64,000 nucleotides of DNA, taken from the sequence record MK327944.1; one strand, given 5' to 3'. Below the pieces are notes generated by a model. That model was not told the origin of the DNA, did no database searches, and saw only the letters and a program-made list of their open reading frames with translations. Shown here piece after piece: positions 3,207 through 4,880 of the stretch (the stretch's first letter is position 1; each line of letters opens with the position of its first letter). The stretch is from Escherichia phage vB_EcoM_G2540-3. The translations under genes were made by a program, and so were the position numbers.

Positions 3207-3522
3207 TAAGCCTTGCGGCAACCTTGTCGGGGTTCCACCTGCTAAGGCAAGTGTTTGTACGAAACGCCGGGATCGAACCCGGTTATTAAGTAGTTGACGC
3301 TACTCAATATTTTTAAAAGGCCATATCTCGACCATATCCGAACGTTCCGTCAAAAACGCTACTCGGCTTACGGCAAAGATATTTCCTCGAATCGATAATT
3401 CGGTGCGCCGTTTCTGCTGTGATATAAGGGGACATTAACAAAACATAAAGATTTATTAATGCCAGTCCTTAAACAGGGAACATCAGTCCGACGACTTACC
3501 GGTAGCGACCCGGTTTCTTGTC
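3207..3522 (-). ncRNA. candidate small stable RNAs (T4 species 1/2, rnaC/rnaD-like), including a tRNA-like element around 3259-3349
   Basis: No ORF; lies between tRNA-Arg and terminator as in T4; T-arm-like ACCGGGTTCGATCCCGG with acceptor-like pairing CGGAACG/CGTTTCG. Confidence 0.35.
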
Positions 3523-3598
3523 TGGTCGAGGCAGTAGGGATCGAACCTACGACCCAGGACTTAGAAGGTCCTTGCTCTTCCTTCTGAGCTATGCCCCG
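3523..3598 (-). tRNA. tRNA-Arg (anticodon UCU), CCA encoded
   Basis: Reverse complement folds as cloverleaf: acceptor CGGGGCA/TGCCTCG, anticodon loop CTTCTAA, T-arm GTAGGTTCGATCCCTAC. Confidence 0.8.
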
Positions 3599-3601
3599 TA
3601 A

Positions 3602-4267
3602 TTAAAATTTCATTTTTCGACCTTTAAACCATCCTTCTGGAATTGGGTCAGTTTTCTTAATACGTTTAGAAACTTTTTCATCTAATGAATGAATCCACAT
3701 CATACCAAATTGGGAATTCTTTTCGCCCTGTTGGTGTTTATTTCTGGCGTGAGATTCTTTCATTTTATTAATAGTTTCATCTGAATGGGACTTACCCAAG
3801 AAAGATTTAGTATTTGAAAATTTCTCTCTATACTTAGGATTATCCCAAAGCTGTTTAAACCTTTCTGAACCCATTTTACGATATTTTTCTTTAAGGTCTG
3901 GGTCGTTCTCAAATCTGGTTTTAAAAGCGGCAACTCCTTTTAAGGAAGCTTCTTTCTTTTTATCCAAATATTCTTTAGTGTTTAAATGGTCCCAACCACC
4001 TTCACCACCTAATTTCAAATTATAAACGTCAGGGCGCTTTAAAAACTCTTCAGTCACAATATTCTTTTCTGACTCAAACATAGAGGTTTTATCGTCAAAG
4101 AACTCTAATATTTCTTTAGAGAAATTTTCTATACCATACTTGTCTTGGGCTCTTTTTAATAATTTACCAGAACCCATATATCCATCATCTAAATTTTCGG
4201 TAGAATGAGCGCCTATATAGATTTTATTATTAATTTTATTTGTTATTTTATAAGTGTAATGGAACAT
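3602..4267 (-). CDS. segB: GIY-YIG homing endonuclease
   Basis: N-terminus YTYKITNKINNKIYIGAHS...GYMGSGK is a GIY-YIG motif; sits inside the tRNA cluster as T4 segB does. Confidence 0.8.
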   Translation of the reverse strand: MFHYTYKITNKINNKIYIGAHSTENLDDGYMGSGKLLKRAQDKYGIENFSKEILEFFDDKTSMFESEKNIVTEEFLKRPDVYNLKLGGEGGWDHLNTKEYLDKKKEASLKGVAAFKTRFENDPDLKEKYRKMGSERFKQLWDNPKYREKFSNTKSFLGKSHSDETINKMKESHARNKHQQGEKNSQFGMMWIHSLDEKVSKRIKKTDPIPEGWFKGRKMKF

Positions 4268-4308
4268 AAATATCTCCTATTTCTAAGAGTATTTATGTTC
4301 CCAAAATA

Positions 4309-4380
4309 TGGCCCTGGGTGGAATTGAACCACCATCTGGCGATTATGAGTCGCTTGCTTGAACCTTCCAGCTACAGGGCC
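4309..4380 (-). tRNA. tRNA-Ile (gene anticodon CAT, lysidine-type as in T4)
   Basis: Acceptor GGCCCTG/CAGGGCC, anticodon loop CTCATAA, T-arm GGTGGTTCAATTCCACC. Confidence 0.7.
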
Positions 4381-4386
4381 TTGATA

Positions 4387-4459
4387 TGCTGATTGACGGA
4401 ATCGAACCGCCGACGTCCTCATTACAAGTGAGGTGCTCTACCTACTGAGCTAAATCAGC
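4387..4459 (-). tRNA. tRNA-Thr (UGU)
   Basis: Acceptor GCTGATT/AATCAGC, D-arm AGCTCAGTAGGTAGAGC, anticodon loop CTTGTAA, T-loop TTCGATT. Confidence 0.8.
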
Positions 4460-4466
4460 GAAATTA

Positions 4467-4553
4467 CGGAGGCGATAGGATTTGAACCTATGAGTCGCCG
4501 GAGCGACTGCCGGTTTTCAAGACCGGTGCATTAAACCACTCTGCCACGCCTCC
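4467..4553 (-). tRNA. tRNA-Ser (UGA), long variable arm
   Basis: Acceptor GGAGGCG/CGCCTCC, anticodon stem CCGGT/ACCGG with loop CTTGAAA, T-loop TTCAAAT. Confidence 0.8.
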
Positions 4554-4555
4554 AG

Positions 4556-4629
4556 TCTCCATACAAGGATTTGAACCTTGGACCTCCTGATCCCAAATCA
4601 GGCGCTCTACCAAACTGAGCTACACGGAG
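4556..4629 (-). tRNA. tRNA-Pro (UGG)
   Basis: D-arm GCTCAGTTTGGTAGAGC, anticodon loop TTTGGGA, T-arm CAAGGTTCAAATCCTTG; 2-nt spacer to tRNA-Ser. Confidence 0.8.
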
Positions 4630-4642
4630 TAAATTAAATTTG

Positions 4643-4713
4643 AGCGGATAATGAGAATCGAACTCACATCATCAGATTGGAAGTCTGAGGTAATACCATT
4701 ATACGATATCCGC
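4643..4713 (-). tRNA. tRNA-Gly (UCC)
   Basis: Acceptor GCGGATA/TATCCGC, anticodon loop CTTCCAA, T-loop TTCGATT. Confidence 0.8.
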
Positions 4714-4719
4714 AAACTT

Positions 4720-4806
4720 TGGTACGAGAAGTGGGACTCGAACCCACAAGGAAATCATTCCGCAGCATTTTAAGTGCTGTGCCTTTACCAATTTGACCAT
4801 TCTCGC
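4720..4806 (-). tRNA. tRNA-Leu (UAA), long variable arm, CCA encoded
   Basis: Acceptor GCGAGAA/TTCTCGT, anticodon loop CTTAAAA, T-arm GTGGGTTCGAGTCCCAC. Confidence 0.8.
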
Positions 4807-4807
4807 G

Positions 4808-4880
4808 CTGGGAATAAAGGACTCGAACCTTTGCATCCTGGAATCAAAATCCAGTGCCTTACCAACTTGGCTAATTCCCA
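4808..4880 (-). tRNA. tRNA-Gln (UUG)
   Basis: Acceptor TGGGAAT/ATTCCCA, D-arm GCCAAGTTGGTAAGGC, anticodon loop TTTTGAT; 1-nt spacer to tRNA-Leu. Confidence 0.8.

Follow-up and report, generated by a model that had tools for sequence, protein, structure and literature searches.

The transfer RNA (tRNA) operon of bacteriophage T4 is textbook biology. In the T4 annotation (NC_000866), eight tRNA genes, with the homing endonuclease gene segB placed before tRNA-Arg, are followed in the same series by two small RNA genes, rnaD (species 2 RNA) and rnaC (species 1 RNA), and rnaD and rnaC are annotated likewise in phages RB3 and Kha5h. Both T4 RNAs have been detected on northern blots as late RNAs of unknown function (PMC9697503), and a review also gives the function of rnaC and rnaD as unknown (PMC3014915). 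We analysed a 64,000-nucleotide (nt) stretch of Escherichia phage vB_EcoM_G2540-3 (MK327944.1), referred to here as the window, which contains the corresponding genes. An earlier reading of this DNA from its letters alone (the sequence-only reading) had described eight tRNAs, an embedded segB and a downstream non-coding region likely to hold small stable RNAs, in which it described a tRNA-like element.

The window carries the T4-type tRNA operon of Tequatrovirus, consisting of eight tRNAs, segB, rnaD, rnaC, a structured trailer and a terminator. The eight anticodons occur in order on one strand, segB lies between tRNA-Ile and tRNA-Arg, and rnaD and rnaC stand 3' of tRNA-Arg, followed by the terminator. 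These genes match T4 features T4t001-008, T4p132 and T4s001-002 (NC_000866), and the window aligns throughout with the tRNAs, segB, rnaD and rnaC as annotated in T4 and RB3. More than 900 T4-like phage records match the region, which is 99% identical at the DNA level in Escherichia phage vB_EcoM-G28. T4 and the window have the same genes, in the same order and on the same strand, with the same anticodons and terminator; their rnaD cores are identical, and rnaC differs by two changes, one substitution in its long arm and one deletion in its T loop, which leaves the window loop one base shorter. They are unlike in their tRNA-Ile(CAU) and tRNA-Arg alleles (64-66% identical), in SegB (82%), in the central hairpin of rnaD and in tRNA-Thr, which lacks an encoded CCA in the window. 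The 316-base pair (bp) interval between tRNA-Arg and the terminator (3522-3207) is real, because an intrinsic terminator, recovered by our scan, lies at 3207-3184. As T4 annotates rnaD and rnaC in this interval and the alignment covers both, the expectation of species 1 and species 2 RNAs was right in substance, with the correction that the small stable RNAs assigned there by homology are two distinct RNAs, followed by a conserved 3' trailer. The locus was thus already known, and the finding as first written adds nothing new. Taken as a whole, the identity of the operon, the fold of rnaC and the inferred kissing contact and mimic role that are set out below make up an explanation that we consider probable.

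We collected 33 distinct rnaC sequences from distant BLAST matches, two pattern scans of IMG/VR and one metagenome scan, and aligned and analysed 30 of them. A covariance model built from 16 homologues, with the window excluded, had a single match in the 64 kb, at 3397-3256 (152.6 bits, E=2e-39, model positions 1-144). RNAalifold, run on 13 sequences, gave a structure in which 28 of 42 pairs showed compensatory change. Among the 30 distinct sequences, 32/50 proposed pairs were compensatory and 93.6% of cells were paired, compared with 36-47% of cells when the partners were slid by 1-3 columns; none of 500 shuffles reached the observed values.

The covarying structure begins and ends in a 7-bp acceptor stem, closed by CGAUUCG at the true 5' end of the RNA. 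At pair 3:70, 19 sequences have G-C and 11 have A-U, and both U.U positions of the stem become U-A and C-G in the phiR1-RT clade. Directly after the 5' acceptor strand, in the position of the D arm, starts a long arm of 70 nt in which 18/22 pairs are compensatory; an A-rich linker of 8 nt leads from it to an anticodon-like arm, and one base further on stands the T arm. These dimensions were held in 30/30 sequences, the long arm measuring 70-71 nt, the anticodon-like arm 26 nt and the linker 7-9 nt, and a 5' bulge of 3-4 nt below the apical stem of the long arm was kept even where that arm could not be aligned (Melville, VPA32, F48, L036). At the 3' end, U73 (3259) is followed by the tail ACA (3258-3256). 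The tail follows the pattern xCA: most members, the window included, have ACA, the phiR1-RT clade has UCA and the F48 clade CCA. What rnaC has in common with a tRNA is therefore found in its upper half, where the 7-bp acceptor is contiguous with a 5-bp T stem, both covarying, and U73 is invariant. Its lower half departs from a tRNA: a 70-nt arm takes the place of the D arm, and the 7-nt anticodon loop is missing. With a 10-bp stem and a loop of 6 nt standing where the anticodon arm would be, rnaC would be unable to decode. Thus, covariation shows rnaC to be a putatively tRNA-derived, tRNA-shaped RNA, predicted to stack a 7-bp acceptor on a T arm and to be tRNA-like in the upper half only. It is not a canonical tRNA by either detector used, since ARAGORN made no call and RF00005 gave no match even at E<=10.

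The sequence-only reading had placed the tRNA-like element at 3349-3259, with an internal CGGAACG (3349-3343) as the acceptor strand opposite CGTTTCG (3266-3260), behind an unrelated leader of ~47 nt. The two heptamers are complementary as written and would be paired in 84.8% of cells across the homologues, but as an acceptor stem they have no covariation support, with 0/7 pairs compensatory and position 3 unpaired in 16/30 sequences. Five of the seven bases of CGGAACG covary instead with their partners across the apical stem (5/5 pairs compensatory, 100% paired), and the remaining two belong to the apical loop, one of the two loops that may kiss. The terminal stem, by comparison, covaries, is the only pairing that the phiR1-RT clade permits, and coincides with the annotated 5' end of T4 rnaC. 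We consider an internal acceptor very improbable and rejected it, because the covariation of CGGAACG goes to the apical stem of the long arm. A tRNA-like element does lie downstream of the tRNAs, and its T-arm-like ACCGGGTTCGATCCCGG is present as written. Since CGAUUCG at the true 5' end pairs as the acceptor, this element is the whole 138-nt rnaC (3395-3258) and not the shorter interval.

The T loop of the window (3272-3277, minus strand) reads UUCGAU and has 6 nt; a loop of 7 nt, mostly UUCGAAU, occurs in each of the 29 other distinct homologues. This exact deletion variant was absent from IMG/VR, and the best GenBank matches, among those listed, span 352 bases against 351 in our query. The deletion may be a real change specific to this isolate or an error in a run of two A. 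Elsewhere in the family, the loop is UGCAUCC or UGCAUGC in Serratia phage LC53 (L014) and Enterobacter phage MY742 (L018), where the T stem is kept. Thus, rnaC does not need the canonical T-loop motif in every lineage.

Two loops of rnaC, UUGACG (3353-3348) at the apex of the long arm and CGUCAA (3299-3294) on the anticodon-like arm, are exact reverse complements, and all six positions were complementary in 30/30 sequences. Where the loops change, they change together. In the three sequences of the phiR1-RT clade they read UUGAUG and CAUCAA (C-G to U-A), in the four of the F48 clade UUGGCG and CGCCAA (A-U to G-C), and no uncompensated loop change was seen across the 30 sequences. Both hexaloops are closed by covarying stems and their Watson-Crick complementarity is contiguous. 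The evidence for a predicted 6-bp loop-loop helix is good but not conclusive. Such a kissing helix would either lock the lower half of rnaC into a closed rod or join two molecules head to tail. The HIV-1 TAR-TAR* and ColE1 RNA I/RNA II complexes are similar in that hairpin loops of 6-7 nt have every base Watson-Crick complementary to the other loop; unlike rnaC, whose two loops sit within one 138-nt RNA and whose contact is deduced from covariation, they involve separate RNAs with known regulatory roles. The contact is unreported in the searchable literature, outside which lie the 1970s papers on species 1 RNA, which may already describe part of the secondary structure.

We identified rnaC in Tequatrovirus, Mosigvirus, Gaprivervirus, some Dhakavirus, Moonvirus, Karamvirus, Tegunavirus, Gelderlandvirus, Winklervirus and Marfavirus. 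Wherever we inspected its surroundings in relatives that encode tRNAs, it sits inside the tRNA cluster. It is precisely absent from JS98 and VR5, where rnaD directly abuts the conserved trailer. Scanned with a pattern, 185,579 genomes of bacteria and archaea yielded no homologue, only 14 chance matches that all lacked the T arm and acceptor, and the metagenome scan added no new loop variants, its matches being additional T4-like copies, phage tRNA-Cys genes or chance matches. The Rfam search that the sequence-only reading had suggested recovered the eight tRNAs, as foreseen, and found no family for rnaC or rnaD over the region at E<=1 or E<=10, only terminator-driven noise. A stable transcript of ~140 nt from the window rnaC is assumed by homology to T4. 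Weak matches to the rnaC model (23-25 bits) fell on phage tRNA-Cys genes in the uncultured phage contigs L044, L046 and L048, and these genes have the 3' pattern of rnaC, namely TAAC, the T arm and then GCG....GU-CCA with U73. This could hint at a tRNA-Cys ancestry, which we treat as a lead only; the evidence is circular, because those loci were chosen with a pattern derived from rnaC.

The second RNA, rnaD, has a different organisation. Its 5' hairpin (3514-3498) shows an A-U/G-C exchange at the base (alifold and pair counts), an invariant helix of GUCGUCG (3495-3489) with CGGCGCAC (3410-3403) closes the structure, and the junction is made of the conserved strands GACUGAUGUUCCCUG and AUCACAGCAGAAA. 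Among homologues the core is constant and the central hairpin is replaced by at least four unrelated sequences. In W70, an Escherichia phage of the Vequintavirinae (L099 1118-1290), a tRNA(CAU) almost identical to the window allele is followed directly by an rnaD homologue with the same junction core as the window and a different 5' hairpin and central hairpin, so the module appears to have crossed phage subfamilies. In the Dhakavirus phages 04086 and ABTNLsp5 (L019 188-262, and L020), an rnaD-like miniature of ~63 nt (GCCGUCG ... GACUGAU ... CAGCA ... CGGCGCACCA) stands between tRNA-Arg and the full rnaD. From the core in W70 and the miniature copy in Dhakavirus, we infer that rnaD is a separate, horizontally mobile module, with an invariant two-helix junction core that would carry an exchangeable hairpin. 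It is absent from Moon, Karamvirus phages and others. For the rnaD junction, a hammerhead (CUGAUG ... GAAAC) was rejected, as only two helices come together there, the supposedly unpaired 'N7' base is paired and covaries with the strand opposite, position 9 is U or G and not A, and Rfam gives no match. Of a k-turn or a loop-E motif, both considered by eye and dropped, the k-turn is out because of two extra A on the non-bulged strand. An interaction between the rnaD hairpin loop and 'UAGCG' of rnaC was also dropped, its complementarity being uncorrelated with the co-occurrence of both RNAs. When a T4-like phage was evolved in three lines on the semi-permissive E. coli host ECOR34, each line acquired a convergent single-nucleotide polymorphism (SNP) in rnaD, as reported in 2025 (PMC12685909). 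It is the sole hint of function that we found.

For rnaC, we tentatively propose a self-locked tRNA mimic, in which a minihelix would be joined to a length-calibrated 70-nt arm that kisses the 'anticodon' hexaloop, in cis or in a dimer, and which would act as a decoy or scaffold, with rnaD as a second mobile module; we hold this to be possible rather than probable. The tRNA-like upper half would make the operon transcript a substrate for host maturation by ribonuclease (RNase) P, cutting at 3395/3394, and by 3' trimming, which would account for the excision of rnaC from the operon transcript and for its stability. A precursor of species 2 and species 1 RNA (p2Sp1) reportedly accumulates in RNase P mutants, and species 1 RNA is said to be cut in vitro by RNase III, which would fit the long arm. 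As an abundant, late, non-decoding tRNA mimic, rnaC might then occupy or titrate a host factor that binds tRNA or double-stranded RNA, and the candidate partners would be a processing RNase or a tRNA-targeting defence nuclease. The decoy, titration or scaffold role is speculative.

Several described RNAs offer points of comparison. Transfer-messenger RNA (tmRNA, SsrA) resembles rnaC in having an acceptor on a T arm, no decoding anticodon arm and a replaced lower half. Unlike rnaC, with its 138 nt, it has G3.U70, a tag open reading frame (ORF), a pseudoknot ring and ~360 nt. Processing by RNase P is known for tmRNA (PMC11143913), whereas for rnaC it is deduced. YrlA and the bacterial Y RNAs (RF02553) are also small stable RNAs in which a tRNA mimic is joined to a long irregular helix, one that binds protein in their case, but the YrlA model has no match to rnaC, and in rnaC the D arm is elongated, not the anticodon arm. 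Ro/Rsr is not known from the host, E. coli. Adenovirus virus-associated (VA) RNA I and the Epstein-Barr virus-encoded RNAs (EBERs) are, similarly, small, abundant, late and structured viral RNAs that combine a tertiary lock with a long, imperfect duplex. They are not homologous to rnaC, and the likeness is an analogy only, by which decoying a host RNA-binding protein would be a plausible mode for rnaC.

Several observations weigh against a self-locked mimic of this kind. The T loop is not strictly conserved in LC53, MY742 and the window, which weakens any model with a canonical tRNA elbow; the acceptor stem has two U.U mismatches in 27/30 sequences; and the tail here is ACA, not CCA. In the loop helix just two independent covariation events were seen, and four of the six pairs never vary. 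T4 mutants that have lost the entire tRNA region remain viable on laboratory hosts. If a self-lock is assumed, it also counts that the loop covariation fits pairing in trans equally well, that is, a dimer in which two rnaC molecules would lie head to tail and make two reciprocal 6-bp kissing contacts, as in HIV DIS or ColE1 RNA I/II. By our own reasoning the long arm has ~30 stacked layers, and to kiss in cis the 10-bp arm and the 6-bp helix would demand a sharp bend in it. Yet conserved arm lengths and a fixed 5' bulge are requirements of a closed single-molecule geometry; they would be expected from a geometric constraint, for example docking within one molecule. The stacks also match by our own count, with ~22 layers in the anticodon-like arm, kissing helix and apical stem against ~24 in the remaining long arm. 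We regard a dimer as rather unlikely.

The other rivals concern what, if anything, the RNAs do. That rnaC and rnaD are functionless, as decayed tRNA genes or processing by-products kept by operon position and structure, would agree with the lack of a known phenotype and of a stated function (PMC9697503, PMC3014915), and with the absence of each RNA from the phages named above. Decay is difficult to reconcile with an rnaC structure maintained through extensive compensatory change in ~10 genera, with invariant arm lengths and two co-evolving loops, or with an rnaD core that is identical in a Vequintavirinae phage, has had its central hairpin swapped at least four times and gained the convergent SNP in all three lines on ECOR34 (PMC12685909), and we judge it improbable. 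About equally improbable, in our estimate, is that rnaC is aminoacylated or CCA-tagged through its minihelix (U73) and delivers or sequesters an amino acid, elongation factor Tu (EF-Tu) or a synthetase, in the manner of tmRNA. The 7-bp acceptor on a T arm, the invariant U73 and xCA, and the encoded U73-CCA of the F48 clade point that way, as does the weak, circular match to phage tRNA-Cys, which also has U73. On the other side stand the ACA tail of most members, a T4 annotation that ends at U73-A, the tandem U.U in the stem and the lack of a tag frame; ARAGORN and Rfam find neither a tRNA nor a tmRNA here, and pair 3:70 is A-U or G-C, not G3.U70. As the tail is ACA, UCA or CCA by clade, charging or CCA repair is a minority possibility. 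The idea that the interval encodes small proteins we find scarcely credible. The sequence-only reading had seen no ORF in it, which holds for ORFs of at least 60 amino acids (aa), but mechanical ORFs of 34-42 aa exist, and several GenBank records carry overlapping coding sequence (CDS) features, annotated 'hypothetical protein', over rnaC or rnaD (FL08, F48, AS6, MY742 and others). Single-base indels among close homologues break any frame, substitutions track RNA pairing and not codons, and the T4 RNAs were detected as stable transcripts. Given the RNA covariation and the frame-breaking indels, those CDS are probably spurious.

The remaining features of the operon are listed in Table 1. ARAGORN and the Rfam tRNA model (57-73.5 bits) agreed that the window has eight tRNAs and no more; they all lie on the minus strand (4880-3523), in the order that the sequence-only reading had given. 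That reading had put spacers of 1-6 nt within dimeric precursors; by ARAGORN boundaries they are 0-6 nt in the three classical pairs, and the Gly-Pro spacer is 12 nt. The embedded segB was likewise borne out. Its GIY-YIG domain (PF01541) scored 25.7 bits against a cut-off of 22.6, and the protein is 82% identical to T4 SegB. The two tRNAs that flank segB (CAU and Arg) are 64-66% identical to those of T4 and the other six 88-99%, which suggests allele replacement or exchange around a homing endonuclease. The anticodon stem of tRNA-Gln is also replaced relative to T4. For the tRNA with the CAU anticodon, which had been read as a lysidine-type tRNA-Ile, the T4 counterpart is annotated tRNA-Ile and the best E. 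coli matches are annotated tRNA-Ile too; they occur in nearly all of 5,426 genomes and are 80.8% identical along the full length, so that the body resembles bacterial tRNA-Ile(CAU) and not tRNA-Met. Its acceptor stem, read from the alignment to the Rfam tRNA model, is GGCCCUG/CAGGGCC and so contains C4-G69 and C5-G68, pairs that are determinants for TilS. The E. coli matches and these pairs support its assignment as Ile2 with a predicted, lysidine-dependent modification.

Table 1. Positions of the tRNAs, segB, the small RNAs and their parts, the trailer and the terminator in the window, listed in the direction of transcription.
Feature	Position	Strand	Evidence and remarks
tRNA-Gln (UUG)	4807..4880	-	ARAGORN; Rfam tRNA 67.4 bits; 88% identity to T4, anticodon stem different
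tRNA-Leu (UAA)	4720..4806	-	ARAGORN, Rfam; 99% identity to T4
tRNA-Gly (UCC)	4642..4713	-	ARAGORN, Rfam; 72/72 aligned bases identical to T4
tRNA-Pro (UGG)	4555..4629	-	ARAGORN, Rfam, T4 comparison
tRNA-Ser (UGA)	4466..4554	-	ARAGORN, Rfam, T4 comparison
tRNA-Thr (UGU)	4387..4459	-	ARAGORN, Rfam; no encoded CCA, present in the T4 copy
tRNA with CAU anticodon, predicted Ile2 type	4309..4380	-	ARAGORN, Rfam; allele only 64% identical to T4 tRNA-Ile
segB, GIY-YIG homing endonuclease, 221 aa	3602..4267	-	ORF; Pfam GIY-YIG; 182/221 residues identical to T4 SegB
tRNA-Arg (UCU)	3523..3598	-	ARAGORN, Rfam; allele 66% identical to T4, RB3/JS98 type
rnaD (species 2 RNA)	3402..3521	-	Boundaries by alignment to T4 and RB3 annotations
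rnaC (species 1 RNA), predicted tRNA-shaped four-way junction	3258..3395	-	T4 and RB3 annotation, alignment; covariance model
rnaC acceptor, 5' strand CGAUUCG	3388..3394	-	Pairs with CGUUUCG 3266-3260; tandem U.U at 4:69 and 5:68
rnaC long arm, 70 nt, in D-arm position	3318..3387	-	Apical loop UUGACG 3353-3348; 18/22 pairs compensatory
rnaC anticodon-like arm, 10-bp stem and 6-nt loop	3284..3309	-	Loop CGUCAA 3299-3294; 8/10 stem pairs compensatory
rnaC T arm, CCGGG-UUCGAU-CCCGG	3267..3282	-	One base past the anticodon-like arm; two pairs compensatory
Conserved 3' trailer, three small hairpins	3210..3253	-	Also in JS98 and VR5, which lack rnaC
Intrinsic terminator, 10-bp stem, GAAA loop, then UUUUU	3180..3207 (called 3207-3184)	-	Terminator scan

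The trailer between rnaC and the terminator is composed of the hairpins CACUUGC-CUUA-GCAGGUG, AACC-CCGACAA-GGUU and GCC-GCAA-GGC. In part (CCCCGAC, GCUUAGC) it has the sequence of the terminator's 5' half, which makes an alternative pairing with the terminator conceivable. Directly 3' of the rnaC terminator, G28 (L001 1556-2090) and many relatives carry an insertion of ~556 bp with one small ORF and a second terminator, which the window does not have (~3150-3180). A scan of the region for sigma-70 promoters gave nothing above shuffled expectation, and the late-promoter motif TATAAATA did not occur within 3000-5100.

Species 1 and species 2 RNAs were sequenced ~50 years ago and have had no known function since; species 1 RNA has been an orphan from the early 1970s on. 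Covariation now gives species 1 RNA a testable architecture, with the correct acceptor stem, an arm of invariant length and two co-evolving loops, and gives species 2 RNA an invariant core. The rnaC architecture is conserved across ~10 T4-like genera and, if true, has not been described before in the searchable literature. Neither RNA is in Rfam, and our analysis flags mis-annotated 'hypothetical proteins' over both of them in many phage records. The convergent SNP in rnaD (PMC12685909) suggests that both RNAs may matter for host range, which would give them relevance to phage therapy.

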